From Candidatus Chloroheliaceae bacterium (GTDB taxonomy: Bacteria > Chloroflexota > Chloroflexia > Chloroheliales > Chloroheliaceae), in the NCBI GenBank assembly GCA_013390945.1, contig JACAUC010000003.1, forward strand, positions 5,274 to 69,273: 64,000 nucleotides of DNA, read 5' to 3'. Of this stretch, positions 16,381 to 60,838 are shown piece by piece. The position numbers were made by a program, and so were the translations under genes. Position 1 is the first letter of the stretch. Every line of letters starts with the position of its first letter. The notes under the pieces were generated by a model, which was not told the DNA's origin, searched no databases, and worked only from the letters and a program-made list of their open reading frames with translations.

Positions 16381-16435
16381 CCTCTTAGGAGTTAAATATC
16401 AATAAATTGTCTAGAATTTCTTTAGGAGGTCTTAT

Positions 16436-23518: not shown

Positions 23519-23619
23519 GAGTGAGAGTTGCCTTTCTTTTGTCGGGTGTTGGGTGTTAGGTGTCGGGTGTCGGGAATTATCCAGCACCTGATACCCGATA
23601 CCCCACCCCTGATACCTAA

Positions 23620-24966
23620 TCAAATTCCTACTTTTAAGGGTTCACGTACATGGTCATCGTCATCTACATCGGCAAAGAAGTCGCGCATATTCCGGTAAGT
23701 GTTGAGTTGGCTCAAAATTAGCTTCATTTGGTCTACCAGAGGACGCACACCTGCGGCCAGCAGAATTGGTCGGCCAGCTACAATATTAGTGTAGTAGACT
23801 GCTGGGATACCGCGCCGTTTAGCTACCGCTTCTATATTGCTGGAACCGACTACAAGGTCGGGAGCCATTTCGTCTAGGGCTTCAAGGTCATCTTCATGGC
23901 GCTTGCGGAAGAGTAGCGGAATATTCCGTCTCCGTAGCCAAGCTGCATCATCTTTAGTCCCCGGCCCCTCCTTAATGCTAGTGGAGACATAACAGACTTT
24001 GGCCCCAGCCTCGTGCATCAGACGGGCGAAGAGTAATTCGCTACCCTCATAACCCGCAATCATAATCTTGACTCCATCGAGCCGATTCTGGTCTAATTCA
24101 TCGGCTACCTTTTGAGCCTCCTCATCGGCGATAGCCTCGATTTCAGGGTTGGGCAATTGCATCAATAGTCCCAAGTTCTTTAACCAACTATAGGTGCCTT
24201 CTGCGCCTACCGGGGCACTGTAGAGTGGCTGCACACCAAATGAGTTTAATTCTTTGACAGTGCGGTCGTAGAAGGGGTGGAGCATTGCTGCCACTTTTGC
24301 TTTAGGCGCGTCATAGTAGGCCGAAATATCCTTATGGGGCAGGGCAGTGCGTAACCGCACTCCCATTCGAGAAACGGCGACACCTAATTGCACCGGGTCA
24401 GTTGGAAAGACTTCGCCAATGACCGCGAGACCATCTAGTTGTCCGTCGCTGGTCTTGCCCTCTGCCGCCATATTTTCGCCGACCCGCTTGATAATTTGGC
24501 TGATTGCTACATCTTTGGCCTCGGCGTGGGTGGGTACGCCATAAGCGGGAACTCGCATCGGTATAATTTCGGTGCGCCCTAACTTCCTAGGCAAAAGCTC
24601 AAGGTGGAGGCCGCTGGTCTCCGGGGTGCAGAGCGACATAACCGCAATCATCTGCGGGTTTTCGTGTTCCACCACCTCTTTGATTATGCCAATTACCTTA
24701 TCCGTCAGGTCGGTCTCCACCAGTTCGCGGGTGGTCAGTGAAGGTGAGACAATCGGTTTGTTGGAAGCATAGAAGTGGGAGACAAAATCTAGCCCGTAGA
24801 GGCAACCTACCGCTCCTACCAATACCGGCACCAAGCCCTCAATACGCATGGTTACTCGCAGCGAGCCAAAAGCTGGACACATGGTGGCACTGTGCATACT
24901 ACATTCGCTGCTCTCTTTAGGGGTTAGGTTAATGCTGCGCCCACTCTTTAATTCTTCGCTAGGCAT
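23620..24966 (-). CDS. bchY: chlorophyllide a reductase subunit Y
   Basis: MHSATMCPAFGSLRVTMRIEG ... VPAYGVPTHAEAKDV matches the BchY signature. The ATG at 24966 overlaps the bchX stop by 8 nt (ctATGcctag), consistent with translational coupling. Confidence 0.85.
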   Translation of the reverse strand: MPSEELKSGRSINLTPKESSECSMHSATMCPAFGSLRVTMRIEGLVPVLVGAVGCLYGLDFVSHFYASNKPIVSPSLTTRELVETDLTDKVIGIIKEVVEHENPQMIAVMSLCTPETSGLHLELLPRKLGRTEIIPMRVPAYGVPTHAEAKDVAISQIIKRVGENMAAEGKTSDGQLDGLAVIGEVFPTDPVQLGVAVSRMGVRLRTALPHKDISAYYDAPKAKVAAMLHPFYDRTVKELNSFGVQPLYSAPVGAEGTYSWLKNLGLLMQLPNPEIEAIADEEAQKVADELDQNRLDGVKIMIAGYEGSELLFARLMHEAGAKVCYVSTSIKEGPGTKDDAAWLRRRNIPLLFRKRHEDDLEALDEMAPDLVVGSSNIEAVAKRRGIPAVYYTNIVAGRPILLAAGVRPLVDQMKLILSQLNTYRNMRDFFADVDDDDHVREPLKVGI

Positions 24967-25837
24967 AGACCAGTTCCTCCGTGCTACGCCTGCTCCTAAG
25001 TTCATCCGGCGTGGCGCGGCGTAACCGTCCCCGCGTCTTCTGCTGGAACATGCGGTAAAATTCCTCAAAATCGAGTGGATTCGGGATGACGGATTCGGTT
25101 TGATCCATATTAGCAATAAACTTATCCATTGCCTCCCGCATTTCGGGAATTTCCATTACTTCAAAGGCATCTTTCATCATTACCGCCTCTGGTACAAATG
25201 GCATATTGGCTAGGATCGGAATACCGGTTTGGGCGGTGTAAGACTTAGCTACGCCCGTACCATCATCTTTATTGAGGATTAGGCCCAAGACGCGGCTTTC
25301 GCTTCCCTCCTCGGCGTAGTGCGCTACGGCCCGGCTAACATTGTTTGCCACGTAAAGCGATTGTTGGTCATTACCGGCCACAATCACAATCTCACGGGCG
25401 ATGGAACGGGCAAAGCTCATTCCAAAGCCACCACAAACCACGTCGCCTAAGAAGTCCAGCAGTACCACATCAAAGTCCCAGCTAAAGAGTCCCAGCTTTG
25501 AGAGGGTGTCAAAGCCGAGGACGATACCCTTACCGCCACAGCCCCGTCCGGTCTCCGGCCCGCCTAACTCCGCCGCGTAGACTCCGTTGCGTTCAAAGAT
25601 CACATCGCTGGCCGTTAGGTTTTCATCCTCACCATTTTCGTGGAATTCGCGCCAGACTTCTAGGATAGTAGGCAGTAAGACTCCCTTAAAGAGGGTTGCA
25701 GTCGAGTCGTGTTTGGGGTCACAACCAATTTGCAAGACACGTTTGCCTTGCTGAACTAGCCGGACACTTAGGCAACTGCTCAAGAAACTCTTGCCACTAC
25801 CACCCTTGCCGTAGATGGCAATTACTCTCTGGCCCAT
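24959..25837 (-). CDS. bchX: chlorophyllide a reductase iron protein
   Basis: IAIYGKGGSGKSF, GGPETGRGCGGKGI, VLLDFLGDVVCGGFG, NDQQSLYVANNV and NKDDGTG are BchX-type blocks, not BchL or NifH. The next two genes are BchY and BchZ. Confidence 0.9.
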   Translation of the reverse strand: MGQRVIAIYGKGGSGKSFLSSCLSVRLVQQGKRVLQIGCDPKHDSTATLFKGVLLPTILEVWREFHENGEDENLTASDVIFERNGVYAAELGGPETGRGCGGKGIVLGFDTLSKLGLFSWDFDVVLLDFLGDVVCGGFGMSFARSIAREIVIVAGNDQQSLYVANNVSRAVAHYAEEGSESRVLGLILNKDDGTGVAKSYTAQTGIPILANMPFVPEAVMMKDAFEVMEIPEMREAMDKFIANMDQTESVIPNPLDFEEFYRMFQQKTRGRLRRATPDELRSRRSTEELVYA

Positions 25838-26507
25838 AGACCTAGTTACCTTTCTATATCTTCTATATCTATATCTATATTGTCATACGTTATTGAAAGC
25901 ATAAGTTTTAGGTGTATCAAAGCTGTAGGGTTGTGGCAAAAGGAGACTGCAACCTAAGTGGTGGCATAGAAAATACCATCTACCATATTTTGAAGAGTTA
26001 TTGCACTTTACAACAGCCCTAACCAATGCCGTCAGAAACCACCTTGGATTCTGTTACCAAGTAGGTATAGTAGAACCTAGGGGCATCTATTTTCTGGCAT
26101 TTCTGACAAATGAACAAACGGTCTTTGCTCTTATAAGGAAAGGTAACATAGGGGTTAGGGGTGGTAAGTATTAAATGCTACAAAAATTTTGCCATTATGG
26201 AAATGGCTTTGGGCTAATTCCACATTCTTAAATTAATATTTATTCATACTGGTTAGACCAAAACCAGCCAGATTGCGGTCTTGGAGCCTTAAGAGCTTTG
26301 AAAAGGTTCTGAATTTAATAAAAATACCTACCAATAGTCCTGATTAATCGCCTTTGGCGTAGGCTATAAGCCTTGAAACGGCACTGTGTTTGGTAGGCTT
26401 GGGAGTTAAAACCAAACTCTTTAATTAAAATTTATATATGGCATTTAGCTCCTAAGCACCTAAGCTGTGGCGATTATGAATTTTTAATAAAGGTTGCTTT
26501 GCGCCTC

Positions 26508-49268: not shown

Positions 49269-51362
49269 TTATCGCAATCCCTCGGCGGCGGTGGTGACGC
49301 TGTGGGTAATAGTTCGGGCATCGGCGCGAGGTAGATAGATGTAGTGACCGCACAACTTACGGGCTAGACTAGCGGCCTCGCCTCGACTAAGGAAGCTAGT
49401 TTGGGTATCTAGCACCACCGTCGAAAGCCCTTCACTAGCCAGCAACGAAGCCAATTGCTCTACTTCTTGGGCCGCTTGCGACTTGCGCTCGTCTTTGGAA
49501 AGTGTGGCAGTTTCATCATTCTCCTGAAGCAAAACATTCCCGCGACCATCGGTAATCAAAATTACCATCGTCTTATTGATTCCTTGCCGCCTAGCACTTT
49601 CACTCATTCGCCAAGCGGTCATCATCGCGGAGGCCAGCGGCGTACCACCACCAGTAGGCAACACGTCCAATGACCGTTTGGCTAACTCTACGCTCTGGCT
49701 AGGAGGCAGCAGCACCTCGGCTTCGCGGCCTCGGAAAGAGATCAAGGCCACTTTATCGCGGTGAACATAAGCCTGCTGTAGCAATTGAGTTACGGCTCCT
49801 TTTGCTTCGCGCATTCGGTTTAAGGCCATCGAACCACTGGCATCCACCACAAAGATAAAGAGTACCCCAGCCTTATCTTTATAGCGTTTGAGCCTCAAGT
49901 CATCGGAACGCACCAGCACTTTAGCACCACTACTCGGCTTCCTTGCTCTGGTTTTAGGGGCAGGAACGGGTATTGGTTTAAACACCGCTTTCCGGCCTTT
50001 TTTACCTTCCAGTTTTCGAATATTTTGGAAGGGAGCCGCCGCTCGCAAAGTATCAATAATAGCAATCCGACCTCGGCCCGGTTTACCCGGCACACTCTGG
50101 ATGTGGCGACCGCGCTTCCAGTTATAGGTTTCGCCTCGGCTGCCCGACTTGGCTCGCTGTTGGCGGGCTTGAACCAACGACAGAATATCAGCTGGTAATT
50201 CGGTCTCTAGGGCTGCCATTATCAAATCATCCACTTGAGGTTCCTGCTCCTCCTGCTGTTCGGGAGGTTCCGGTTCCTCATTCTCTGGTGGAGGCGGTTC
50301 TTCTTCTTCGGGCTCTTCTGGTTCGGGCGGCTCTGGCTCTTCCGGTTCTGGTTCGGGTAAACGGGTAGCGCGTGGCAATAAGACTAAACGCACCGCCGCC
50401 TTCAGATCATCATCGTCTACCTCTATCCGTCCCTCCAAAGCGGCGGAGGCCAAAGCAACCCTAGTGGAGAAGAGATCCACCCGATTGCCCATTACTCCCA
50501 TTCGCAGGGCCGTCTCACTCAAGGCTCTCAACTGCTCGTCCGTGATTGTGACATGGGGCAAGACTTTGCGCCCTTCGACAATCAAGGTGCGTAGCATTTC
50601 GGTTTCCTCTTCGTACACGGCATTCAGGTTGACCGGATCACGATCCCAACTCAGGGCGCGAGTCATAATCTCGGCCCGATCATTTGGCCCTACAGGAGGA
50701 GTGCCAGGTACAATCAGCCCTACCCGGTCAGTCAGTCCATCCCGTACCTCGCCTTCGTCCGGGTTAAAAGTACCGATCAGGATAAACTCGGTGGGATAGT
50801 CGGCACTTAGTCCATCTCGTTCTAAGGCCAACCGACCTCGGCTCAAGGCATCCATCAGATAGTTACCCGGCCCATCATCCAAGAGGTTCATTTCATCGCA
50901 ATAAAGTATACCCCGATTGGCCTCGGCCAACAGACCGCGTTCGGCAATACGCTGTCCCGTTTGCAAAGTAGCTTCGAGGGCCAACCCACCTAACAACCGA
51001 TCTTCGGTTATATTAAGGGGCAGATTGACAAAAGGTGGGGGCGAATTAGTAATGGTAAACTTCTGGGCATGGGAACCTCTATAACTCTTCTTGCAATCGC
51101 TACACCACTTTTCGGGTTGGGCCGGATCACAATGTGATTGGCAACTAGCGATAGATTTGATAGAGGGTAATAGGGCATGAAAACTACGGGCCATAATAGT
51201 TTTAGCCGTACCAGGCCGGGCTGAGATAATCACCCCGCCCAATTTTGGGTCAATTGCCAGTAGCAAAAGCCCCCGTTTTGCCCAAGGGTGTCCTACCACC
51301 GCTGCAAAGGGATAATGCAGATAATCCGCTTGGTGCTTCTCCTGTTTATCTAAAGTTAACAT
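49269..51362 (-). CDS. bchD: magnesium chelatase subunit D
   Basis: N-terminal AAA+-like module (YPFAAVVGHPWAKRGLLLLAIDPKLGGVIISARPGTAKT). Acidic Pro/Glu linker (PEPEPEEPEPPEPEEPEEEEPPPPENEEPEPPEQQEEQEP). C-terminal vWA domain with MIDAS (FVVDASGSM). Confidence 0.9.
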   Translation of the reverse strand: MLTLDKQEKHQADYLHYPFAAVVGHPWAKRGLLLLAIDPKLGGVIISARPGTAKTIMARSFHALLPSIKSIASCQSHCDPAQPEKWCSDCKKSYRGSHAQKFTITNSPPPFVNLPLNITEDRLLGGLALEATLQTGQRIAERGLLAEANRGILYCDEMNLLDDGPGNYLMDALSRGRLALERDGLSADYPTEFILIGTFNPDEGEVRDGLTDRVGLIVPGTPPVGPNDRAEIMTRALSWDRDPVNLNAVYEEETEMLRTLIVEGRKVLPHVTITDEQLRALSETALRMGVMGNRVDLFSTRVALASAALEGRIEVDDDDLKAAVRLVLLPRATRLPEPEPEEPEPPEPEEPEEEEPPPPENEEPEPPEQQEEQEPQVDDLIMAALETELPADILSLVQARQQRAKSGSRGETYNWKRGRHIQSVPGKPGRGRIAIIDTLRAAAPFQNIRKLEGKKGRKAVFKPIPVPAPKTRARKPSSGAKVLVRSDDLRLKRYKDKAGVLFIFVVDASGSMALNRMREAKGAVTQLLQQAYVHRDKVALISFRGREAEVLLPPSQSVELAKRSLDVLPTGGGTPLASAMMTAWRMSESARRQGINKTMVILITDGRGNVLLQENDETATLSKDERKSQAAQEVEQLASLLASEGLSTVVLDTQTSFLSRGEAASLARKLCGHYIYLPRADARTITHSVTTAAEGLR

Positions 51363-51495
51363 GGTCGCCTAGTTAATCCTTTTAATAATACAAACCTAGT
51401 TTGACGCTCCGCTAAAAAAAATGCTATACTTTTTAGGCTTTATAACTCCTGATTATACATACTTGGCAAAGACTAGTCTACAGAGGCGCGTTCAA

Positions 51496-53199
51496 ATGAA
51501 TCAACCTGAATCGGCAGGACCACCACCTGCTCCCAACCTTGAACAGACAACTCCGTCCTCCGCTTCACCCGATGAGCCTAAAACTTCAAAGGCAGCTAAG
51601 AATATGTCGTTGGGGCGCAAGACTGGTCGCGCACTCTTTTGGAATGTCTTCTTTCTACCCCTCAAAGCTGGTTTACAACTCTTCGTGACCCTCGTTATCG
51701 TCAAGACCTTCCCACTAGAAGCTTACGCAGTGTTGGCGGCAGTTACTGCTGTCCTTAGTACATTGGGACTCTATGTAGACTTAGGTATCGAACGGGCCTT
51801 GCCGCGTTTCGTAAGTGAGATTGAGCAGAAACAAGGCCGGGCGGCACTACGTCTCTTTATCACCCGTATTACCCTCATCAAACTGGCCGTGCTAACCGTC
51901 GTAGTCTTGATTATCACCGTAGCCGCCGAACCAATTATCAGTTGGATGGGTAGTTGGGGCGATCAGGGTCACATTTACTTAGCTCTAATTAGCATGTTAT
52001 TGGTATTGGGCGCACTTTATGACATTTGTACCCAAATCCTCTATAGCTTTTTCAAGCAAAAAGTCACTAACCTGCTTGACATTGTAGTAACTGTACTCAA
52101 TCCTCTGCTCACGCTGTTACTGGTTGGCCCTTTGGGGCTACGGGTCTATGGCGTAGTGCTGGCCCTACTTATCACCACCGTTATTAGTGTCGGAATTGCT
52201 GGCTGGCAAGCTTGGCTGGCTTCAAAAGACCTTGAAGTCAAATTAAAAACTCCCAAACCTAACCCAGCCCCTTCCGCGACTGATACCGGAGTGATCCCCC
52301 GTGAAAGCCTGCTCAAGCGCTTCATTCGGTATGCGGCCCTGATGTACTTTTTCAACATCTCAGCTTGGTTCTACGATGCCTCTTTCGCGATGTTGGTCTT
52401 CACCTTCTACCGGGAGATTGTCACAGTGGCCTTGATCCGCTTGATTTACAATTTCATCAAGACCCTATTAAAGAACTTGTTGTCCCCCTTTGTAGGAGTA
52501 CAAACACCTCTCTTTTCCTCCATCCATGCCGAGGGTCACACCCCTAAATTGCACACTGCTTATGCTTCAATCAGCAAACTTCAAATTTTTATTCTAGTGC
52601 CAAGTAGTATTGGTGCGATCATCTTAGCCCGTAACATCCTTGAACTTCTCTTTGCCCGTAAGAGTGCCGATGCGGTGCTACCTGTTACGCTGCTGGAACC
52701 GGCTACTTGGGCCACCATCCTCACTATCATCTTTACCTTTGCCGAAGCCCTTATCAGTCTGCCAATGGTGATACTGATGGTCTACGAACGTTATCGGGCG
52801 GTAATTTTGGCCCGTACCTTACCACTGTTAGCAGGGCCACTGCTGATACTAACTGCCGCCCTACATTGGAATGTGGTGGTTGCCGTAACGATAATGGGTT
52901 TGATGGCAGTTAGTTCACGAGTGATGGCCATGGTCTCATTACAACGGACGCTGGGCCTCTATTACCCGGTTAAATTCCTTCTCAAAGTCTCGAAAGCGGC
53001 CCTAGCCTTTGGTATCCCTTTGCAAATCCTCGTTCTCTTCTTGCCGATCAACTGGCCTATAACCCTAGGCATAGCAGGTACGGGTGTTATAATCTTCTAT
53101 GCGGTTTTTAAAGGGTTGGGCGGTTTTGACCTAGAGGACAAAAACCGCCTACAAACCCTTAAAATGCCTTTACGCAAATATATAATTAAGTGGTTTTAG
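51496..53199 (+). CDS. MOP-superfamily (Wzx/MurJ-like) polysaccharide/lipid flippase
   Basis: ~14 hydrophobic helices with a polysaccharide-biosynthesis-protein-like layout. I prefer the MNQPES ATG at 51496 over the track start at 51421. The 3' end overlaps the bchI 3' end by 4 nt (convergent). Confidence 0.55.
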   Translation: MNQPESAGPPPAPNLEQTTPSSASPDEPKTSKAAKNMSLGRKTGRALFWNVFFLPLKAGLQLFVTLVIVKTFPLEAYAVLAAVTAVLSTLGLYVDLGIERALPRFVSEIEQKQGRAALRLFITRITLIKLAVLTVVVLIITVAAEPIISWMGSWGDQGHIYLALISMLLVLGALYDICTQILYSFFKQKVTNLLDIVVTVLNPLLTLLLVGPLGLRVYGVVLALLITTVISVGIAGWQAWLASKDLEVKLKTPKPNPAPSATDTGVIPRESLLKRFIRYAALMYFFNISAWFYDASFAMLVFTFYREIVTVALIRLIYNFIKTLLKNLLSPFVGVQTPLFSSIHAEGHTPKLHTAYASISKLQIFILVPSSIGAIILARNILELLFARKSADAVLPVTLLEPATWATILTIIFTFAEALISLPMVILMVYERYRAVILARTLPLLAGPLLILTAALHWNVVVAVTIMGLMAVSSRVMAMVSLQRTLGLYYPVKFLLKVSKAALAFGIPLQILVLFLPINWPITLGIAGTGVIIFYAVFKGLGGFDLEDKNRLQTLKMPLRKYIIKWF

Positions 53200-54368
53200 G
53201 CTTTAACGCCTAACACTTTTTCTGCCGCTTGCTCAATCTTGATGCCACTATCGGTATTGTCGAGGGGGTCTTTTCGCAGGCGGTGGCGTAGCGAAAGACC
53301 TACTACATTCCGTACATCCTCCAGCGTGACAATCTTCTTGTGGCTAAGAGCCGCTTGAGCGGTAGCAGCGCGAGCAATGGTCAACTCGCCCCGGTGTCCG
53401 TCCACGCTCAAGGCTAGGCATAATTCGGCAATTTTTAGCAAGACTTCATGGGGCAACGCTACTTGGGGTAGAAGTTTCTGAGCATTTTTGATTTGGCGGC
53501 GCAATTTTTCCTGAGCAGGCTCCCACTCTGCCATAAAATCGGCTGGATTTAGCTCAAAACTCTGGCGACGTTTGACAATCTCCACTCGCTGTTCCAGATC
53601 AATAATGGTAATAATGCGAGAGTGTAGACCAAAGCGATCCAACAATTGCGGACGCAAATCGCCTTCCTCAGGATTGCCACTACCCACCAACACGAACCGG
53701 GCTGGGTGGCGCACACTAATACCTTCGCGTTCTACCGTATTTACCCCACCAGCCGCCACGTCCAGCAATACGTCCACAAGGTGATCTTCTAAGAGGTTTA
53801 CCTCATCAATATAGAGGAACCCGCGATTGGAACGGGCCAACAGTCCTGGCTCAAAAGCTTTGATACCTTGATTTAGGGCTTTTTCAATATCAATTGTGCC
53901 GCAAACCCGGTCTTCGGTAGCACCTAGCGGTAAGTCTACCACCGGAACAGGCGCATAATGTCCCGTGAGTTTTTGCCCTTTCGACAGCTTATCCCGGCAA
54001 TCGCGGCAGAGTGCGCCACGCCGCTCGGTATCGGGATCGCAGCCATAGAAGCAGTTTGCTACTACTTTAATGCGTGGCAACAAATCGGCGAGGGCGCGAA
54101 CAATGGTGCTTTTGCCAGTTCCGCGGTGGCCCATAATCATTACCCCCCCAATTTTGGGGTCAATCACATTGAGCAAAAGCGACCGCTTCATCTCTTCCTG
54201 TCCCACGATGGCAGCAAAGGGATAGACATAGTGGGCTTCTACCTCATCTTTGCCCTTTGCCGTAGTTTTTGCTTTCCCTTTGACAGTAGGCGTTTCTTCG
54301 CCATTACCATTTTCCAGCAGCTCGTCCGGTTCGTCTACAGGTATGGTATTTTCTATTAGCTCGGTCAT
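53196..54368 (-). CDS. bchI: magnesium chelatase ATPase subunit I
   Basis: YPFAAIVGQEEMKRSLLLNVIDPKIGGVMIMGHRGTGKST (Walker A), FLYIDEVNLLEDHLVDVLLDVAA (Walker B), SGNPEEGDLRPQLLDRFGL. It has a ~40-aa N-terminal extension. Confidence 0.9.
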   Translation of the reverse strand: MTELIENTIPVDEPDELLENGNGEETPTVKGKAKTTAKGKDEVEAHYVYPFAAIVGQEEMKRSLLLNVIDPKIGGVMIMGHRGTGKSTIVRALADLLPRIKVVANCFYGCDPDTERRGALCRDCRDKLSKGQKLTGHYAPVPVVDLPLGATEDRVCGTIDIEKALNQGIKAFEPGLLARSNRGFLYIDEVNLLEDHLVDVLLDVAAGGVNTVEREGISVRHPARFVLVGSGNPEEGDLRPQLLDRFGLHSRIITIIDLEQRVEIVKRRQSFELNPADFMAEWEPAQEKLRRQIKNAQKLLPQVALPHEVLLKIAELCLALSVDGHRGELTIARAATAQAALSHKKIVTLEDVRNVVGLSLRHRLRKDPLDNTDSGIKIEQAAEKVLGVKA

Positions 54369-54432
54369 TAACTCTATTCTTTCTCTCTATACTAGATTAA
54401 TTCTTGATAAGCCATAACTACAAATTTCCTAA

Positions 54433-55491
54433 TTAGCTTTTTAGCGCATTTTCAAGTCCAAACTCTAATGACTCTGATTTACCATTACTAGAATCATTGG
54501 TAATCATTGTGGTCAAGTTAATAGAAGCGCGGGTTAGGTGTAACTTGAGCAAAGTTGCCACCTGAGCAGGTAATTCAGCCAAGATCAGATGACCACAATG
54601 GGGCATAACAAAATAAGTACAATTAGGCAGTAAGGTGGCAAGGCGTTTACTGCTTTTCTGACTGATTACTTTGTCGTGCGAACCAGCCACTAGGAGTGTG
54701 GGCATTTTGAGTGAGACTACCCATTGAGGTAACTGATCCAATACCTCCCTTGACATAGTAGATTTAGCCATATAAAAGGCGGCATTGGGCGAAGTATCTC
54801 GCAGGCTCAAGAGTCCATACTCAATATCACGACGTGAGGCCGGATTTTTTAGCAGGGTGAGGCGGGCATAGTAGTAGACGGCCCGCCAAGATTTGAGTCG
54901 TCGCAACACTTTGCTAAAAACTGTAGCAAGAGCTTTGGCCCCAAACTGCTCAAAAGCGGCACTATACTTGAAAAGACCATAGTTGAAAAAGGCCACACTA
55001 GCCACCGATTCAGGATAGCGAGCGGCGTAAGCCGTAGCAATTAGCGAACCGACCGAGAAAGAGAGGAGATGGAATTTTTCCAACTGGAGCAATTCGGCTA
55101 GTTTACGGAGGTCGTCAACTAGCGTGGCGATTTCGTAATCCGCTACGATAGGGTCATCGGTGAAGCCATGTCCGCGTAAATCATAATTGATCGTGCGAAA
55201 GCCTGCGATATTGAGAATGTCTACGATGCTGTGCCACCAAAAAGAGGAACAATCCCAGCCATGCAATAGGATCACCGACTCACCCTTGGGTGGGCCTTCA
55301 TCTAGGTAGAAATGGTTGACTCCGTTTATTTTTACGAAGTGGGCCTGCTCCAGTTTGGAAAGGTCTTCCTGCAGGTTGGCTCGACGCTGTGTATTGGTGT
55401 GGGGTAAGGCAATTTCAGCCTGGGCGAGTGTGGCATATTCCAACGCTTTCGCTGTAGGCACCCCTTCACAACCTACCTTCTGCTTCATCAT
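54433..55491 (-). CDS. alpha/beta-fold hydrolase, BchO-like by position
   Basis: HGWDCSSFWW oxyanion region, nucleophile elbow SFSVGS, C-terminal HCGH histidine. It lies directly upstream of bchI. Purple-bacterial bchI-bchD-bchO clusters encode a similar hydrolase, so the BchO label is a context inference. Confidence 0.55.
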   Translation of the reverse strand: MMKQKVGCEGVPTAKALEYATLAQAEIALPHTNTQRRANLQEDLSKLEQAHFVKINGVNHFYLDEGPPKGESVILLHGWDCSSFWWHSIVDILNIAGFRTINYDLRGHGFTDDPIVADYEIATLVDDLRKLAELLQLEKFHLLSFSVGSLIATAYAARYPESVASVAFFNYGLFKYSAAFEQFGAKALATVFSKVLRRLKSWRAVYYYARLTLLKNPASRRDIEYGLLSLRDTSPNAAFYMAKSTMSREVLDQLPQWVVSLKMPTLLVAGSHDKVISQKSSKRLATLLPNCTYFVMPHCGHLILAELPAQVATLLKLHLTRASINLTTMITNDSSNGKSESLEFGLENALKS

Positions 55492-55993
55492 TATTTGCCC
55501 TCTAATTTATACTCTGCTAACTTAATCATATTTTTAGTTTAAGTAAAGACTAGTAAGAAGCGCAGAAAAACAATTACCGCCAAAACGGACATGTTACAAT
55601 TATAACAAGGCCAAAGTGGGGTAGTATGTAGTAATAACTACACCTTAAGGGGGTGGTTGTTACTGCACCGATAGACCAAGCGAGTGAAACTCTGGATAAT
55701 ATTAGTGCAAGGCGGGTTAAACTTAGCCAGAAATGAGGCTGTAGCTAAAACTACCGCTAAAAAAGCGGGGCTTGATATAGAATAGGACTATCGCATAAGA
55801 ACTTTTTCGCTCACTCGGCCTTCTCGTAATCGCTTTATATTCCCCGTGTGAGTAGTTTTAAGATAGTTACTGTGCCTGGCAAAAAACCAGGTAGGTTTTG
55901 CTTTACCTGAAAACTACAGGGAGCCAAATTCCCTGTGGATAAGCCGCACCGATCTTACAAACGACAAAATTTAACTAGAGAGGAGGCTGGCCG

Positions 55994-56671
55994 GTGGCTT
56001 TTCAAAGATTTCGGTTCAACTCAAGACGAAACAAAATTGCCACCAGTGTGCTGGGGCTACCCGAAACCCAGGCAGTTTACTTTAGTGTCTGGCTCGCTGG
56101 CATATTAATTGGTGTCGTATTAATGATTATCCTTGTAGGTTTAATCGGCAATGGTGTGGATACACCACGTACGCAACAAACCGCTAGGGAAAATCAGGGG
56201 GACATCGTAGCACCAATCCAACTAGTCTACCGAGATGCTCAGGGAAATCTAGCTACTGCACAGCAAGCTGGTTTCTCTAATGGCGTGGTAGCCCAAGTAG
56301 ATAGTTGGGAACGAGCAGCCGCGCAGGGTGATAAAGTAGCTCAAGCCGAGCTACAAGCAGCACGTGGTCGCGGACAAGCTAACTTTAATCGGATCTGTAT
56401 TGGTTGTCATTACGGCGCACCCCAAGCATCTTCCAGTGGCCCTTATCTGGGGAACCTTTACCAGACTAAGACCGTCTTCAATGGTAAGCCGCTCAATGAT
56501 GCTAATGTAGTTACTTTTATCTTATTAGGCAGTCAGTCTCACAACTTGGTGGCGGATGGTCAGCATGTGCTGGTCAATGGGAGCGGTGGTTTTATGCCGA
56601 TGCCCTCCGGAATTGCTACACCGCAGCAAGCTGTAGACATAATGCTTTATTTGAAACAACAAACGAGTTAA
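55994..56671 (+). CDS. membrane-anchored monoheme c-type cytochrome (candidate reaction-centre electron donor)
   Basis: 225 aa with a GTG start after a gagaggagg RBS. One TM (VWLAGILIGVVLMIILVGLIG). The CXXCH heme motif CIGCH is at 56396-56410. A distal Met candidate lies in GGFMPMPSG. It ends 30 nt upstream of the pscA-like gene. Confidence 0.75.
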   Translation: MAFQRFRFNSRRNKIATSVLGLPETQAVYFSVWLAGILIGVVLMIILVGLIGNGVDTPRTQQTARENQGDIVAPIQLVYRDAQGNLATAQQAGFSNGVVAQVDSWERAAAQGDKVAQAELQAARGRGQANFNRICIGCHYGAPQASSSGPYLGNLYQTKTVFNGKPLNDANVVTFILLGSQSHNLVADGQHVLVNGSGGFMPMPSGIATPQQAVDIMLYLKQQTS

Positions 56672-56701
56672 TAAACCTTAGGCTAGTAAGGAGCACAAGC
56701 G

Positions 56702-58489
56702 ATGAGCATTACCCTGCAACCGGGCGCCCGTCCGCTCATCAATCGGCCAGCACTAAACAAAGCGGCTGAGCTGCATGTGCCAGGATACCGCTGGTATCAG
56801 CTTTTTGCCTTTCCGCGTACCGAAGATCAGATTTTTGGCGGCCACTTGATTGTGGCCGGTGCAATCGGTTCGATGGTAGCGTTCAACATTGGCAGTGGGC
56901 TTACCTTCCCTGGTAACTATTTTTTCCTTACCATCGAGCCACAGCTTTACAATCTAGGTATTGATACCAAAGAAAAGCTCTTGACCTATACCCTGATCCA
57001 TATCATCTCTAGTCTGGGCTTAATCTTCTTTGGTTGGTGGCACTATCGCAATAAAGTGTTACAGGCTGCCGCCTCAAGCTACGCGAAGGCGTGGGGTGGG
57101 CATTTGGTCTATATCGCTTGGTGGTGCTTCGCCTGGGTGCTGTGGAGTACGTTGGTAATGCAGCGCGGCCCTAAGTTTGGTACAGATGGATGGATATGGG
57201 CCGCAGCAGGAGCGCAAGATTTAACCTTTAATGGTGACGCCCTACTGCTTTGTCTGTCGGTAATATTGCTGGTAACCGGGTTGGTAACTTGGCGCAAGCC
57301 GCCGACCTTTAATCGGCATTTGGAAGATCCAAAAGCGCAACTTCACGTCAATCTGGTGGTCTTTGGCTGGACAGGCATGTTGTTCAGTGCCTTTGCCTGG
57401 TTCACCTTCCCGCGAGGCTCAAACGCCGCCGCAGGCCAGTGGAGCGATGTGGCTCTTAATCTCTACGTGTGGAACCACATTAACTGCAGCTTCCTCTACA
57501 TCATCGGCGGTGTCTTTCACGGCGCTCAGTACCTCTGGGACGTGCGCGAGGATGACTCCAAGAACCCTTGGGTAGTAAGTCGCTGGGTACGCTGGTTCGA
57601 TAGTCAAGACCGTCAGGCCAGTATCACGAGTACAATCTTCCTCTTGGCCTTCTTTACCGGCTTTAGTGCTTGGTCTGTAATGGGTATCAACTCAATGGTG
57701 GATTTTAAGCTCTTTCCCCAAGAGTGGTACATTGACGGTCTGCGGCCTTACGTAATGGAATGGTTGACCCCCGGCCTGCTGCACGTCTGGCCTGGATATA
57801 AAACGAGTGTCAGTGATTGGGTCTTTATACATGCTCTTGTAGCTGGTTTCTTCTTTGTAGGGATACCAGTCACTCGGTCAGTATTTTTCACCAGACGTAG
57901 TCCCTTGTTTGATGCAAAAGGGATCACTAAACGTAGTTTCGATTATCCTTGTCTAGGGCCGGCCTATGGCGGTACCTGCGGTTACAGTATTCAAGATCAA
58001 ATCTGGTTAGCAATGCTATGGGGAATTAAACCGCTCTCGGTTATCGTTTGGTACATGATGGGTGTCTACTTTGGTAGTTTGCAGTTCGCAATTAACCCGA
58101 AAGACCCATCAGGTGATACTAGCTTCCCTGGAAGACCCGGAGCTTTGTTCTTCATCTTCCAAGCTACCAGTAAAATCTGGAATGATGGTCACTTGACGAT
58201 GATACTCTATCTTGGACACCTTGTTTGGCTATTAAGCTTTATGTTCTGGTTTGAGTATCGGGGTAGCCGTCTCGAAGGAGCGTATATCCTCAGTCAGGCA
58301 CTTAAACGTTGGTTCGGTATTAATATGGTGCCTGAACGCTTTGTTATGACGCTGGTAGGTAGCCGTATGTTAGGTACCTTCCTCTACTATGGTGGAGTCT
58401 TCATGTGTGTCTTTACCTATCTCTCGGTAGGTTTCGCTTGGAGGCCAAACATCCTAGCGCCAGTAGTCGCACCATTAGGCGGTCCATAG
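56702..58489 (+). CDS. pscA: type I photosynthetic reaction-centre core protein (PscA/PshA/PsaA-PsaB family), divergent and compact
   Basis: 595 aa and polytopic. The FX [4Fe-4S] loop FDYPCLGPAYGGTC has Cys417 at 57950-57952 and Cys426 at 57977-57979. Compare the family consensus FPC.GP.RGGTC. The penultimate helix ILYLGHLVWLLSFMFWFEYRGSRLEG (His506 at 58217-58219) aligns with PsaA [26 protein letters not shown], which carries the special-pair ligand. RBS is taaggagca. Confidence 0.85.
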   Translation: MSITLQPGARPLINRPALNKAAELHVPGYRWYQLFAFPRTEDQIFGGHLIVAGAIGSMVAFNIGSGLTFPGNYFFLTIEPQLYNLGIDTKEKLLTYTLIHIISSLGLIFFGWWHYRNKVLQAAASSYAKAWGGHLVYIAWWCFAWVLWSTLVMQRGPKFGTDGWIWAAAGAQDLTFNGDALLLCLSVILLVTGLVTWRKPPTFNRHLEDPKAQLHVNLVVFGWTGMLFSAFAWFTFPRGSNAAAGQWSDVALNLYVWNHINCSFLYIIGGVFHGAQYLWDVREDDSKNPWVVSRWVRWFDSQDRQASITSTIFLLAFFTGFSAWSVMGINSMVDFKLFPQEWYIDGLRPYVMEWLTPGLLHVWPGYKTSVSDWVFIHALVAGFFFVGIPVTRSVFFTRRSPLFDAKGITKRSFDYPCLGPAYGGTCGYSIQDQIWLAMLWGIKPLSVIVWYMMGVYFGSLQFAINPKDPSGDTSFPGRPGALFFIFQATSKIWNDGHLTMILYLGHLVWLLSFMFWFEYRGSRLEGAYILSQALKRWFGINMVPERFVMTLVGSRMLGTFLYYGGVFMCVFTYLSVGFAWRPNILAPVVAPLGGP

Positions 58490-58697
58490 CCTTATCTGGT
58501 TTAGGCTTATCGAATGAAGTGGGCAACTCACGGGGTTGCCCACCAATGTCAAAGGTTGTGGTAAGCTAAACTATAAGATCCGTAGTTTCTGGCTCAACGT
58601 TAAAAGCAACAAAGATTTTCGTTTCTATTTCTTAACCAAAGTAAAGAGTTATTTCTTTAAGAAATAAACGATCCATTAGCTAAGGAGGTTCCCACAT

Positions 58698-59819
58698 ATG
58701 CCGCAGTTCCTAGAAGGAAGGGCAGAACAGGGGAGAGGTCAGGCCGATTGGCGCTGCCGATATGATGATGATTGGTGGTTAAATACCCAAGTTCGCGCAC
58801 TTCTTGGTTGCCCTACCGCTGTCCCCAAATTGCCACTCGAAACGGAAGTTGAATTCCGCGCTCGCCCTAAAGGTGACGATATTTCAGAGTGTACCGTCAA
58901 GGTCGAATCATTGGTGGAAGGGGTCAAAAAAACCCTTGAAATTAGTGCTTTAATTACAGACCTAGATGAACATACTCGCGAAAGTAAGGGTTTTGGTCGT
59001 ATTATTGTAGGTGACTTTATTCACCCCTTTGAGTGGCGCGGTACGGTCAAGCGCGAGACTTACGTACCTGATAGCAGTCTTAATCTGACTCGCTCACAAA
59101 CTTACATCGGTGGTCGGCTCTTACACGACGTGACCGCTCGTATCGCGTTGGATACCCCGATTGCCCGTGAAGCTTGGGAGCAGGTTCGCACTGTAACTGC
59201 TCGCAATAGCGATGTTTTGACCAAAACGGTCTTCTTTGGCCCACTCTGGCGCACGGCTGACCTAACCGGGCAGCTTTACGAGGATATTCAGGTGAAGACC
59301 CTCAGTGCCAGTGAAGGGAAAACCTTAAGTCGCGTCAGCTTTATCACCAGCGGTACAGGCCAAGTAGACAGTATTACTTACTGGACACGTCTCTTCCCCA
59401 TTTCGTTGCTCAAAGGACGTGAGGCTTTTGTCAAAGGTAAGTATGTAACCGATGCCAGTAGTATTAGGGTTTCGGTAGATGCCGAACTACCCGGTTTAGT
59501 GGAACGCAAAGATGGACTTCTAAAGGTAATTGACCACCCGCAGATACCCATCCTGCACCATGGCCTCGTTGGTCAGCCCATTCCGCTAGATCTGGATTTC
59601 AAGCTCAACCTAACGACACCCAATGGTTGGCGCATTAAAGAAGCCGATCCAAGTTATCGCAAGAAGATTGGTAAGAATGATTACCTATTCCAAGGCGGTG
59701 CCTATCTCAGTTTCGTCAATACTATCGCGCGTGGCAACTTAGCCCCGTTCGATGTCTGGTTTGATCGCGATGAGGCCGGTGCCTCGCTTAGCCCCAATGC
59801 AGCTATCGCAGTGAAGTAA
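58698..59819 (+). CDS. fmoA: Fenna-Matthews-Olson bacteriochlorophyll a protein
   Basis: 373 aa. Blocks align to Chlorobaculum FmoA: VGDFIHPFEWRG (cf VGDFSHTFSFEG), GGRLLHDVTARIALD (cf QGRQFHDILMKVPLD), VDSITYWTRLFP (cf VDSISRWAELFP), IDHPQIPILHHGLVG (cf LNHPLIPLVHHGMVG), QGGAYLSFV (cf SGGAYARWV). All five His ligands are conserved. RBS is taaggagg. Confidence 0.9.
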   Translation: MPQFLEGRAEQGRGQADWRCRYDDDWWLNTQVRALLGCPTAVPKLPLETEVEFRARPKGDDISECTVKVESLVEGVKKTLEISALITDLDEHTRESKGFGRIIVGDFIHPFEWRGTVKRETYVPDSSLNLTRSQTYIGGRLLHDVTARIALDTPIAREAWEQVRTVTARNSDVLTKTVFFGPLWRTADLTGQLYEDIQVKTLSASEGKTLSRVSFITSGTGQVDSITYWTRLFPISLLKGREAFVKGKYVTDASSIRVSVDAELPGLVERKDGLLKVIDHPQIPILHHGLVGQPIPLDLDFKLNLTTPNGWRIKEADPSYRKKIGKNDYLFQGGAYLSFVNTIARGNLAPFDVWFDRDEAGASLSPNAAIAVK

Positions 59820-60100
59820 CTTATCGGAGACCCGCTTTCAGCCATCAGCTTTTGATAAGTTGATGGCTGGCGGCGGATGGCTGATAGTTTTTTAACAACA
59901 AGCTACATCCAAGCTTATTTAAATGGCTGACTCGGCAAGATCGTTCTTTTGGTCGGCTGATGACCTTCTATCCGTAGGGGCCAACAGTGTAAAGTCGGCA
60001 AGCAAGAGCGGTTGAGGCGCAAGCGGTTGAGTCGGGCAGGCAGGTAAGCGAGCAAGTCAATATAGCTAGTGACAGTGAGTAAGTGAATCCACAAAACAAT

Positions 60101-60134
60101 GTCGGCTCTTTGAGTGAGGGAGCCGGCTTTTTTT
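60101..60134 (+). terminator. orphan rho-independent terminator ~280 nt downstream of fmoA
   Basis: GTCGGCTC-N11-GAGCCGGC stem followed by T7 (60128-60134). No ORF of 60 aa or more ends here. Confidence 0.5.
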
Positions 60135-60281: not shown

Positions 60282-60380
60282 CTAAGAAGCCGCTACCGTA
60301 TTTAGAGCTAGAAACACTAAGCCAATTACACCAAAACCTAAGGATATTACGCGAGTTAAGTGTTGCTGATTTGTCTTCAT
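60282..60380 (-). CDS. candidate 32-aa single-TM peptide (below the ORF-track length cut-off)
   Basis: My translation is MKTNQQHLTRVISLGFGVIGLVFLALNTVAAS. A gaggt RBS lies 5 nt upstream of the ATG. A strong hairpin lies 30 nt downstream of the stop. Confidence 0.4.
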   Translation of the reverse strand: MKTNQQHLTRVISLGFGVIGLVFLALNTVAAS

Positions 60381-60556: not shown

Positions 60557-60838
60557 CTAAACGCGCTTTCGTCCTGTTTTGCCACTAAATAGTGCGGCTA
60601 GACCACTGGAGTTGTTGGCTACAATTTGGGTGGCTTTATTTTCGGCACTATTTGACGAAGGCAGTGTTTTGCCTTGCTTGAGGCGACCAATTAGTTTTGG
60701 TTTAGGAGTCAACAGGTCGCTGACAAAGGGATGCGCTCCCCATCTAGGTGCATCGGCGTGGTGCAGCACATAGCCTAAATTGAGGTCTTCATCGTGTATA
60801 CCGGGGGTAGGTTTTTTAGTTTTTGGTGATTCCATCAT
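60557..60838 (-). CDS. hypothetical small basic protein
   Basis: 93-aa ORF bracketed by a clean terminator. No motif recognised (HHADAPRWGAHPFVSD). Confidence 0.45.
   Translation of the reverse strand: MMESPKTKKPTPGIHDEDLNLGYVLHHADAPRWGAHPFVSDLLTPKPKLIGRLKQGKTLPSSNSAENKATQIVANNSSGLAALFSGKTGRKRV

Follow-up and report, generated by a model that had tools for sequence, protein, structure and literature searches.

A cyt c-pscA-fmoA cluster of the published 'Ca. Chloroheliaceae' bin L227-5C and a candidate electron donor for its type I reaction centre

Background

Type I reaction centres (RCI) combined with the FMO antenna are otherwise known only from Chlorobiota and Acidobacteriota. The closest structurally described system is the RC-FMO complex of the green sulfur bacterium Chlorobaculum tepidum (PDB 6M32, 7Z6Q), with PscA, FMO and PscC, i.e. 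cytochrome cz. In Chloracidobacterium thermophilum, the cytochromes PscX and PscY are monoheme proteins of 189 and 221 residues with transmembrane parts, bound at the periplasmic face (PDB 7VZG, 7VZR; PMC9751088). Heliobacteria have a homodimeric RCI built from PshA (PDB 5V8K), and their donor is a membrane-tethered monoheme cytochrome c553 (PetJ).

In the Chloroflexota, Tsuji et al. (2024, Nature 627:915; PMC10972752) described Ca. Chlorohelix allophototropha L227-S17 and its sister, 'Ca. Chloroheliaceae bin L227-5C', for which their Supplementary Data 2 lists pscA as NWJ94303.1 and fmoA as NWJ94304.1. No clear RCI donor was found by these authors, the sole candidate (OZ401_003595) being without transcripts. 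The cytochrome gene, the promoter motif and the sister-species TGA variants described below are not discussed in their paper.

Results

The window, i.e. the whole stretch of 64,000 nucleotides analysed here, is one contig of 'Ca. Chloroheliaceae' strain L227-5C (Chloroflexota, order Chloroheliales), a published metagenome-assembled genome from Boreal Shield Lake 227. The products of its cyt c, pscA-like and fmoA genes match NWJ94302.1, NWJ94303.1 and NWJ94304.1, respectively, at 100% identity, and the bchD and bchXYZ accessions follow the same contig order. The same cytochrome, PscA and FmoA proteins recur in runs and MAGs from the ELA lakes and in one enrichment (run SRR12042538). Compared with L227-S17, identity is 77.6% for the PscA-like protein (OZ401_000236) and 80.4% for FmoA (OZ401_003705). 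The sequence-only reading had correctly judged the organism compatible with the Ca. Chlorohelix type; its proviso that any other lineage would constitute a new occurrence does not apply, because the accessions are those tabulated for L227-5C, a member of the same lineage. The finding of a type I reaction centre plus FMO in this window is therefore already known, having been published in 2024. Four by-products of the analysis were absent from the literature searched, namely the candidate donor cytochrome, the predicted promoter motif, the hairpin following pscA, and the in-frame TGA, suggestive of selenocysteine, at the FX site of sister species.

Table 1. Coordinates of the features in the window
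Feature	Position	Strand	Basis or remark
bchZ-bchY-bchX, chlorophyllide reductase	21710..25837	-	NWJ94278-80
bchD, Mg-chelatase subunit D	49269..51362	-	TIGR02031, 724.1 bits; NWJ94298.1
bchI, Mg-chelatase ATPase subunit I	53196..54368	-	TIGR02030, 547.7 bits
BchO-like alpha/beta hydrolase	54433..55491	-	divergent from cytochrome gene
Predicted promoter of the divergent BchO-like/bchI operon	55599..55642	-	perfect palindrome TGTAGTTATTACTACA, 23 nt, TATAAT
Predicted activator-dependent promoter of cyt c-pscA-fmoA	55740..55783	+	TGTAGCTAAAACTAC, 23 nt, TAGAAT
Membrane-anchored monoheme class I cytochrome c, 225 aa, NWJ94302.1	55994..56671	+	candidate RC donor
pscA-like type I reaction-centre core, 595 aa, NWJ94303.1	56702..58489	+	Pfam, PDB match, motifs
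FX [4Fe-4S] loop codons, C417 (TGT) to C426 (TGC, 57977-57979)	57950..57979	+	alignment to 6m32_A
Intercistronic GC-rich hairpin, 3' of pscA stop	58519..58543	+	without T-run
fmoA, Fenna-Matthews-Olson BChl a protein, 373 aa, NWJ94304.1	58698..59819	+	Pfam, PDB match
Intrinsic-terminator-like hairpin at operon end	60101..60134	+	11-bp stem + T7

The three genes had been read as co-oriented and closely spaced, and were recovered at exactly the same coordinates, with intergenic gaps of 30 nt (cyt c/pscA) and 208 nt (pscA/fmoA). The cytochrome gene has a GTG start, each of the three genes is preceded by a Shine-Dalgarno sequence, and no T-run terminator is found inside the cluster until position 60101. 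Most likely, the genes form one predicted operon, in which transcription would start at the activator-type promoter, run past the structured spacer downstream of pscA and end at the terminator-like hairpin (Table 1). All species have a hairpin downstream of pscA, constant in position but variable in sequence. The GC content of the cluster (0.46-0.50) equals that of the rest of the window.

The 595-residue protein belongs to the PsaA/PscA/PshA family, as it scores 32.7 bits with Pfam PsaA_PsaB (cut-off 23.3) and, in a PDB sequence search, matches PscA of C. tepidum (6m32_A, E=6.5e-82) and C. thermophilum (E=1.7e-52), heliobacterial PshA (E=1.7e-30) and PSI (about 1e-5). Both cofactor motifs are present: the cysteines of the FX loop C417-LGPAYGGT-C426 align to Cys527/Cys536 of 6m32_A, and the GHLVW motif carries H506. 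Its family membership suggests that the protein assembles as a homodimer into a type I reaction centre of the Fe-S type, in which each monomer would give Cys417 and Cys426 to a shared FX cluster and its His506 would serve the special pair.

The assignment of the 373-residue protein as a clear FmoA is borne out by a Pfam BChl_A score of 167.1 bits (cut-off 25) and by nearly full-length matches to six FMO structures in the PDB (E about 1e-48). All five histidine ligands are present: in an alignment with P. aestuarii FMO, to which the protein is about 32% identical, H109, H143, H280, H287 and H288 correspond to His110, 145, 290, 297 and 298, and conservation extends to the L242 and Y123 positions. 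As a member of this family, the protein probably binds BChl a via the five conserved histidines, and, sitting on the cytoplasmic side, would relay excitation energy from the chlorosome to the core.

The bchD, bchI and BchO-like genes lie adjacent and divergent, as claimed from the sequence (49269-55491, minus strand), and bchZYX, placed there some 31 kb away, is about 30 kb from the cluster. The hydrolase scores 85.7 bits with TIGR03056, far below the cut-off of 172.6, and hence 'BchO-like' is the right wording. Its divergent pairing with the cytochrome gene is conserved in both gene arrangements.

The description of the first gene product as a single-TM monoheme cytochrome c also holds, albeit with a marginal Pfam Cytochrom_C score (22.0 bits, just above the cut-off of 21.3). 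It has one N-terminal TM helix (about residues 28-54) and one heme motif (C135-IG-C138-H139), with M203, in M203-P204, as axial ligand. In a moderate AF2 model (pLDDT 72), the heme domain resembles class I cytochromes c, with a Foldseek probability of 0.97 and a TM of about 0.6. Within the family, the majority fraction is 0.63-0.72 in the pre-TM and TM segments and 0.38 in the linker, which favours a retained anchor over a cleaved signal peptide.

In 10 other species-level loci the cytochrome gene is found directly 5' of pscA-fmoA, and in Chlorohelix-type loci and a third lineage directly 5' of fmoA. It evolves faster than the other genes of the cluster, with 30-69% identity versus about 80-90% for FmoA and PscA. 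The family comprises 32 proteins among 5.8 billion, confined to these organisms, and four full-length representatives among 1.84 billion sequences. In the metatranscriptomes of Tsuji et al. (PMC10972752), the Chlorohelix orthologue MAG319_28_37 (= OZ401_003704, adjoining fmoA), which has no eggNOG annotation in their data, reached log2 expression values relative to dnaK of 3.40 and 2.90, i.e. higher in situ than fmoA (2.81, 2.39), which in turn exceeded pscA (2.40, 1.84). Sequence comparison detected no similarity of the cytochrome to PscC, PscX/Y or PetJ, and a donor role thus rests on context, topology and expression. Given its linkage to pscA and fmoA, its high expression and the lack of a clear donor in the published work, we propose the first-gene cytochrome as a strong candidate for the missing RC electron donor, a suggestion not made by Tsuji et al. 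Anchored by the conserved N-terminal helix at the outer face of the membrane, it would return electrons to the special pair after photo-oxidation.

A motif TGTAG-N6-CTAC, followed by a spacer of 21-23 nt and TAnnAT, is found upstream of both divergent operons (cyt c and bchI) and, in Chlorohelix-type loci, also upstream of the unlinked pscA. Class II activator promoters of the NtcA/CRP type, as known for cyanobacterial NtcA, have GTA-N8-TAC and, about 22 nt further downstream, a TAN3T -10 box. The present motif, read as (T)GTA-N8-TAC(A), fits this layout in palindrome, spacer and -10 box, and these elements are predicted to be NtcA/CRP-like activator promoters. Unlike in NtcA systems, the regulon here appears to consist of photosynthesis genes. 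A CRP-family gene was found near only one locus (L019).

Finally, the codon of the second FX cysteine (C426 column), TGC in the window, is an in-frame TGA in nine of the 13 sister species. A hairpin GACCA-GGUC-UGGUU, arising through synonymous changes, occurs in the TGA-type genes only; it has the 8-mer CAGGTCTG in common with the SECIS of E. coli fdhF. The in-frame TGA, the SECIS-like hairpin and the strongly constrained downstream codons together suggest selenocysteine as FX ligand in the TGA-type sister species. The window pscA combines TGC with a degraded hairpin, and its allele looks like a revertant from the TGA type. In the literature searched, no mention was found of selenocysteine in a photosynthetic reaction centre.

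Discussion

An undescribed RCI/FMO lineage outside the published Chloroheliales genomes could be suspected from the NCBI source label, which reads just 'Chloroflexota bacterium', and from a scan of GTDB representatives that did not yield the window's own contig. This is refuted by the exact accessions in the published table for L227-5C, and we give it practically no credence; moreover, lake MAG ELA729 has 99.4% ANI to this bin (Tsuji et al. 2024; PMC10972752), and contigs with identical proteins stem from the runs and MAG set of that study. Recent lateral acquisition of the cluster from Chlorobiota or Acidobacteriota would agree with the otherwise restricted distribution of RCI plus FMO and with the best PDB matches (PscA of C. 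tepidum, FMO of Chlorobiaceae). It is nevertheless very improbable, considering the low identity of FmoA to P. aestuarii FMO, the identity of only about 30% between L227-S17 PscA and the closest RefSeq RCI, and the placement of PscA as a separate fifth RCI clade (Tsuji et al.; PMC10972752). The GC content of the cluster, the lineage-specific promoter system common to cluster and bchI, and the presence of the cluster in more than 13 species-level relatives also argue against it.

The cytochrome might instead be a general periplasmic-face carrier (serving, for instance, Fe(II) oxidation, a b6f-like complex or a terminal oxidase) that merely lies near photosynthesis genes. Profile and fold identify it no further than as a class I cytochrome c, it is not homologous to any known RC-bound cytochrome, and ferrous iron was used to enrich the L227 cultures. 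We regard such a role as unlikely, if worth keeping in mind, since the gene stays adjacent to fmoA or pscA across three gene arrangements despite its fast evolution, shares its promoter motif with the unlinked pscA, is expressed (as the Chlorohelix orthologue) above pscA and fmoA in phototrophically active populations, and has a family not found outside RCI-bearing Chloroheliales in the sequence sets searched. As to the in-frame TGA, a real stop (truncated or split gene, pseudogene or assembly error) would fit the gene callers, which terminate the TGA-type protein at 424 residues, and a hairpin that matches no Rfam SECIS model. This seems rather improbable, since the TGA occupies the identical codon in nine species-level loci from several independent data sets and aligns with a metal-ligand cysteine, the 169 codons beyond it have a median dN/dS of 0.035, and the serine two codons downstream is kept while its codon alternates between TCC and AGC among species. 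In addition, the SECIS-like hairpin is restricted to the TGA-type genes, and the normal final stop of pscA is likewise TGA. Taken together, it is highly probable that the window is the published L227-5C contig, with one predicted operon for RCI, FMO and a first-gene cytochrome that would act as RC donor.

Comparison with known systems

L227-S17 and the window have the FX site in common, and the FmoA proteins of both lack the two regulatory cysteines (Cys49/Cys353, numbered as in ref. 113 of Tsuji et al.; T49 and A344 in the window). In L227-S17/ELA319, pscA is unlinked from fmoA (tags 000236 versus 003705), whereas in the window it lies between the cytochrome gene and fmoA. The TGA-type genes of the sister species resemble E. 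coli fdhF in having UGA at a Cys-aligned metal-ligand site followed by a GGUC-loop hairpin, but the loop is 2 nt farther from the UGA and the protein concerned is that of a photosynthetic reaction centre, the window itself having TGC.

Heliobacterial PshA is similar to the window core in size (about 600 residues) and in forming a homodimeric RCI, but the two share only about 27-30% identity, and heliobacteria, unlike the window lineage, have neither FMO nor chlorosomes. The tethered PetJ is comparable to the candidate cytochrome, whose proposed role would be analogous to that of PetJ, of PscX/PscY and of PscC in green sulfur bacteria, without detectable homology to them. A homodimeric PscA, as suggested for the window by family membership, is also found in C. 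thermophilum, where it is larger (858-865 residues versus 595). The PscX and PscY genes (A2183, A2184) are close to fmoA (A2186) and pscB (A2187), following the same neighbourhood logic, with two different cytochromes instead of one; no pscB was found in the cyt c-pscA-fmoA cluster. C. tepidum provides the best PDB relatives of both core and FMO (E about 1e-47 for the latter). Its PscA is longer (731 residues), and its PscC shows no similarity to the single-helix donor candidate, but the two cores agree almost fully in the FX loop (PCLGPxYGGTCG.SIQDQ) and share the GHLVW motif.

The reaction centre and antenna genes

The last gene of the cluster encodes a clear FmoA, with a score of 167.1 bits against the BChl_A profile (PF02327) over profile positions 13-354 of 355, and with matches to six FMO sequences in the PDB (E ~1e-48). 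All five histidine ligands are present: H109, H143, H280, H287 and H288 align with His110, 145, 290, 297 and 298 of the P. aestuarii protein (3eoj_A). The backbone-ligand positions are also kept (L232 = Leu242, Y122 = Tyr123 of 3eoj_A); the numbering of the BChl a ligands follows the P. aestuarii structure. The regulatory (redox-quenching) pair Cys49/Cys353 of FMO is absent from the window FmoA, where T49 and A344 take these positions, and the same pair is missing in the FmoA of 'Ca. Chlorohelix allophototropha' L227-S17 (PMC10972752, Supplementary Note 2). This is variation within the FMO family and no ground for exclusion.

The 595-residue protein encoded upstream belongs to the PsaA/PscA/PshA family. 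Its score against PF00223 (PsaA_PsaB) is 32.7 bits (cut-off 23.3), covering the C-terminal third only, and solved structures match over most of its length: PscA of Chlorobaculum tepidum (6m32_A, E=6.5e-82) and of Chloracidobacterium (7vzr_A, 1.7e-52), heliobacterial PshA (5v8k_A, 1.7e-30) and, weakly, PsaA/PsaB of photosystem I (~1e-5). The loop that would bind FX, the inter-subunit [4Fe-4S] cluster, was defined as a C-x8-C loop between the 8th and 9th helices. It is found as FDYP-C417-LGPAYGGT-C426-GYSIQDQ and aligns residue for residue, with C417 and C426 at Cys527 and Cys536 of 6m32_A. The special-pair histidine motif G505-H506-LVW aligns with GHLVW of 6m32_A and 7vzr_A, and it is unchanged throughout alignment A2, where three PshA sequences are included. 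Hydropathy shows ten clear hydrophobic segments and a weaker one near residues 255-277 (the AlphaFold2 model, built on a 6-sequence alignment, has a pLDDT of 39.5); 11 helices are predicted for the L227-S17 orthologue (PMC10972752). The window contains a single pscA-like gene, and a word-indexed homologue search with its product returned eight relatives. Family membership, together with the published physiology of L227-S17, suggests that the protein would form a homodimeric reaction centre with light-driven charge separation to Fe-S clusters. Thus the sequence-only reading, which had made its case depend on the five histidines of FmoA and on the FX and GHLVW motifs falling at the cofactor positions, is borne out for both proteins.

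Gene cluster, neighbours and source organism

Three co-oriented genes had been proposed, with bchD, bchI and a BchO-like gene next to them in divergent orientation and bchXYZ at a distance. The open reading frames lie exactly where that reading had put them (see table), the neighbouring genes are confirmed, albeit with the BchO-like protein below the NCBIfam cut-off for BchO, and bchZYX is found about 30 kb away. The suspicion of a 'Ca. Chlorohelix'-type organism also proved right. By exact-sequence look-up the three proteins are NWJ94302.1, NWJ94303.1 and NWJ94304.1 (NCBI, 'Chloroflexota bacterium'). The accessions tabulated for 'Ca. Chloroheliaceae bin L227-5C' by Tsuji et al. (2024) include NWJ94303.1 as pscA (77.6% identity to L227-S17 OZ401_000236), NWJ94304.1 as fmoA (80.4% identity to OZ401_003705), NWJ94298.1 as bchD and NWJ94278-80 as bchZYX (PMC10972752, Supplementary Data 2). 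The spacing of the L227-5C accessions agrees with the gene order in the window. The same three proteins recur in a 2024 lake MAG, contigs with identical proteins originate from the enrichment run of Tsuji et al. and from lake metagenomes, and the lake MAG ELA729 has 99.4% ANI to L227-5C. The combination of a type I reaction centre (RCI) and FMO in Chloroflexota is therefore real and was correctly interpreted, but this major discovery has already been published from these very sequences, and finding it again adds nothing. Neither the GC content, which is uniform across the cluster, nor the presence of its genes in more than a dozen species-level relatives suggests a recent transfer of the cluster.

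Features of the window and of loci of its relatives (L010-L026)
Feature	Position	Strand	Remarks
Tad/Flp-type pilus assembly cluster	10868-17371	+	RcpC/CpaB-like, response-regulator-ParA-type ATPase, T2SSE ATPase, two T2SSF
Weaker composite promoter match	26140-26182	-	TGTAGCATTTAATAC ... TACCTT; ~345 nt upstream of bchX
Large ORF among exopolysaccharide genes	29495-33016	+	
Large ORF among exopolysaccharide genes	35796-38159	+	
592-aa multi-pass membrane protein	51421-53199	+	between bchD and bchI; overlaps bchI 3' end by 4 nt
Distal promoter, predicted	55599-55642	-	perfect 16-bp palindrome 55627-55642, 23 nt, TATAAT; points at BchO-like/bchI operon
Proximal promoter, predicted	55740-55783	+	palindrome 55740-55754, 23 nt, TAGAAT; points at cytochrome gene
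Conserved block in cytochrome 5' UTR	55809-55819		GCTCACTCGGC
Conserved block in cytochrome 5' UTR	55844-55852		CCGTGTGAG
cyt c gene	55994-56671	+	225 aa, GTG start
pscA-like gene	56702-58489	+	595 aa
Window equivalent of TGA codon	57977-57979		TGC
Hairpin after pscA stop	58519-58543	+	without T-run
fmoA	58698-59819	+	373 aa
Small ORF	59923-60015		30 aa
Canonical terminator after fmoA	60101-60134	+	
Small ORF	60282-60380		32-aa TM peptide
Small ORF	60557-60838		93 aa
In-frame TGA in pscA, L010	11273-11275		
In-frame TGA in pscA, L011	8250-8252		
In-frame TGA in pscA, L012	11273		
In-frame TGA in pscA, L013	11273		
In-frame TGA in pscA, L014	9381		
In-frame TGA in pscA, L015	4957		
In-frame TGA in pscA, L017	11273		
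In-frame TGA in pscA, L018	11273		
In-frame TGA in pscA, L023	7993		
Composite before stand-alone pscA, L016	2678		Chlorohelix type
Composite before stand-alone pscA, L019	9776		Chlorohelix type
CRP/FNR-family regulator gene, L019	14311-15426	-	cNMP-binding domain, HTH_Crp, N-terminal extension ~170 aa
cyt c 3' end, pscA remnant and fmoA, L026	1-2016		metagenome contig JGI20218J20341_1035187

Several other features of the window may be mentioned. The 592-residue membrane protein scores 28.1 bits against Pfam Polysacc_synt, slightly below the cut-off; its gene has the same position in L010, L014 and L017 and adjoins bchD in L011. Of the two large ORFs amid the exopolysaccharide genes, one (787 aa) has no Pfam match and the other (1173 aa) matches alpha-2-macroglobulin as its sole domain. 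A cluster for assembly of a Tad/Flp-type pilus is also present. The small ORFs near fmoA were considered as small reaction centre subunits and dismissed, as they are conserved in no other species. An Rfam scan at gathering thresholds and a tRNA scan of the window gave no matches.

An in-frame TGA at an FX ligand in sister species

The gene calls for PscA of many relatives end at 424 residues, because the codon for the second FX ligand is an in-frame TGA. At the column of the window's C426, TGA is found in nine out of 13 species-level loci, TGC in the window, L016 and L019, and TGT in L024. In the nine TGA-type loci this is the only stop in the pscA frame. Purifying selection on the 169 codons that follow it is very strong (median dN/dS 0.035, maximum 0.068 in 21 pairs), and the serine codon two codons past the TGA alternates between TCC and AGC. 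Since TGA also serves as the ordinary final stop of pscA in six of the eight loci examined, the genetic code has not been reassigned.

Sixteen nucleotides past the TGA, all TGA-type genes carry GAC-CAG-(G/A/T)T(C/T)-TGG-TT, which would fold into a hairpin GACCA-GGUC-UGGUU, with pairs that are invariant within this set. All Cys-type genes read GAT-CAA-ATC at this site. The two synonymous differences co-vary perfectly with the TGA; in the Cys-type genes the stem is weakened by them and the first G of the loop is lost. The apical 8-mer of the hairpin, CAGGTCTG, also forms the apex of the SECIS in E. coli fdhF, a sequence that was verified against 5,413 genomes. Rfam models gave no match to the putative SECIS hairpin in an E-value scan, no tRNA-Sec was found in the flanks examined, and no Sec or 'sel' terms occur among the listed entries of the expression table of Tsuji et al. 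(PMC10972752). The literature searched contains no report linking selenocysteine to type I reaction centres.

We consider it likely that the TGA is read as selenocysteine, and that this residue serves as an FX ligand in the PscA of the sister species with TGA. The UGA at an FX ligand is the most surprising result of the analysis, and it belongs to these sister species rather than to the window, whose pscA carries TGC and is itself no selenoprotein gene. In a neighbour-joining tree the window and L024 are nested within the TGA clade, and the Cys426 of the window is therefore probably a reversion. If confirmed, this would, within the literature searched, be the first case of a reaction centre that is a selenoprotein, and the two gene types would offer a natural Cys/Sec pair for studying the tuning of FX. 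It would also imply that such phototrophs are under-reported, with MAG annotations cutting pscA to 424 residues.

Gene arrangements and their history

Every member of the cytochrome family with examined context falls into one of three arrangements. In arrangement A (the window, L010-L015, L017, L018, L023 and L024) the order is cyt c-pscA-fmoA. In arrangement B, the Chlorohelix type, cyt c is followed by fmoA and pscA lies elsewhere (L021, L022, L025, genes MAG319_28_37/36 of ELA319 and OZ401_003704/3705 of L227-S17), and in arrangement C a cyt c-fmoA pair occurs in L020, which represents a third lineage of greater divergence. The metagenome contig L026 is collinear with the arrangement-A loci and carries, in series, the 3' end of a cytochrome gene, a pscA remnant and an intact fmoA; about codons 408-595 of pscA are left, with frameshifts and several stops. 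This contig resembles an intermediate stage at which pscA is being lost from its place between the cytochrome gene and fmoA. The decayed pscA, a remnant between both arrangements, favours the linked arrangement of the window as the older state.

Predicted promoters and other transcription signals

When the divergent spacer of 502 bp was aligned with its counterparts in three relatives, two conserved palindromes emerged. The motif TGTAG-N6-CTAC has three matches in the 64-kb window, representing two sites, both of them in this spacer, against a mean of 0.4 in shuffled sequences, of which 1 in 100 reached three matches. The stricter composite TGTAG-N6-CTAC-N21-24-TAnn[A/C]T has two matches in the window and no match in any of 100 shuffled sequences. 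The plus-strand composite was found in all 14 species-level loci (L010-L021, L023, L025), with a spacer of 21-23 nt followed by TAnnAT. Two of these loci are L016 and L019, in which it precedes the stand-alone pscA; apart from the motif and the -10 box, the sequences before these two genes have no evident resemblance to the spacers of the cytochrome genes. A generic sigma-70 scan of the window gave no enrichment over shuffles; the signal came from the comparative alignment. Promoters of activators of the NtcA/CRP family have the form GTA-N8-TAC-N22-TAN3T, and the composite of the window has an equal geometry. This argues for one common regulator that would control the cytochrome operon, pscA and bchI. 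The shared promoter geometry is also independent evidence for a link between the cytochrome and the reaction centre. The conserved operator and promoter signature should permit a genome-wide prediction of the photosynthesis regulon of Chloroheliales.

A weaker match to the composite lies upstream of bchX, and bchXYZ may belong to the same predicted regulon. In L019, a gene for a CRP/FNR-family regulator is located 2.5 kb from the stand-alone pscA, and its product is a possible candidate for binding the palindromes. As the regulator sought it was set aside, since no counterpart was found in the window or in the other loci examined.

A strong hairpin follows pscA in every species (the window, L010-L015, L017 and L018), with a conserved position and unrelated sequences; MFE z-scores lie between -3.5 and -7.9, and a T-run is absent from all of these hairpins. 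Together with the canonical terminator after fmoA, this suggests a single operon in which the hairpin would act as an intercistronic stability or attenuation element. In the 5' UTR of the cytochrome gene, the two conserved blocks GCTCACTCGGC and CCGTGTGAG are able to pair, L023 having a seemingly compensatory replacement of G-C by A-T, and may form a leader RNA structure.

A membrane-anchored cytochrome c as candidate electron donor

The first gene of the cluster had been read as encoding a single-TM monoheme cytochrome c, and in its product a positively charged N-terminus, in agreement with the positive-inside rule, is indeed followed by a single, strongly hydrophobic helix at about residues 28-54. 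There is one heme motif, C135-IG-C138-H139; the score against PF00034 (Cytochrom_C) is a marginal 22.0 bits (cut-off 21.3). A Met-Pro pair (M203-P204) lies near the C-terminus and is, like C135, C138 and H139, invariant in 20 homologues. The AlphaFold2 model (pLDDT 72) consists of a long helix and a separate domain, for which Foldseek returned mitochondrial-type cytochromes c and c2 (probability up to 0.97, TM ~0.6, E ~0.08). The family is small, with 32 proteins among 5.8 billion and, in a profile search, four full-length representatives among 1.84 billion, the latter search otherwise yielding only generic heme-motif matches. It evolves fast (30-69% identity, versus ~80% for FmoA and 78-90% for PscA). 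The pre-helix segment and the helix are conserved, as is the heme domain, and the linker alone is free to vary; this is the pattern expected of an anchor that stays in the membrane and touches a partner, rather than of a cleaved signal peptide. Attachment of c-type heme takes place at the outer side of the membrane, and the heme domain would therefore face the side of the special pair.

The gene is not discussed by Tsuji et al., who could recognise no orthologue clearly belonging to a known RCI donor and suggested that 'a novel protein' may serve (PMC10972752, Supplementary Note 2); their sole donor candidate, the PetJ-like OZ401_003595, had no transcripts in situ (PMC10972752). In the metatranscriptome table of that paper, the Chlorohelix orthologue of the window cytochrome has no eggNOG annotation and ranks about 13th in the MAG by expression. 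Its log2 ratios to dnaK there are 3.40 and 2.90, compared with 2.81 and 2.39 for fmoA and 2.40 and 1.84 for pscA (PMC10972752). The cytochrome is thus a candidate for the electron donor that Tsuji et al. could not identify, with OZ401_003704 as the orthologue in L227-S17. As regards new content of the window itself, this is the one substantive hypothesis, next to the regulatory signature.

Taken together, the observations on the relatives and on the window can be combined into a joint reading that we regard as moderately probable. PscA would ancestrally be a selenoprotein in the arrangement-A clade, with FX coordinated by two Cys and two Sec residues, and the TGC of the window and the TGT of L024 would be Sec-to-Cys reversions accompanied by a decaying hairpin. 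The anchored cytochrome would add a fifth family, not homologous to the others, to the donor subunits of type I reaction centres, and both proteins would be under a photosynthesis regulon of the CRP/NtcA type.

Known donors offer a close parallel in architecture. Two monoheme cytochromes that have transmembrane parts, PscX of 189 aa and PscY of 221 aa, are bound to the reaction centre of C. thermophilum (PMC9751088), and their locus tags A2183 and A2184 neighbour fmoA (A2186) and pscB (A2187). The window cytochrome was considered as a homologue of PscC, PscX/PscY or PetJ. This was rejected, as single-sequence and profile searches of the PDB with E-values up to 10 gave no match to any of them, and Foldseek returned generic cytochromes c only. 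The window cytochrome shares with these reaction centre-bound donors a membrane anchor, a monoheme domain directed outwards and linkage to reaction centre genes; in addition, its orthologue is co-expressed with the reaction centre genes and its promoter motif is shared with pscA. It has no detectable sequence homology to any of these proteins. On balance, we favour a function like that of the reaction centre donor cytochromes as the most likely one, without filing the protein as a member of the PscC, PscX/PscY or PetJ families.
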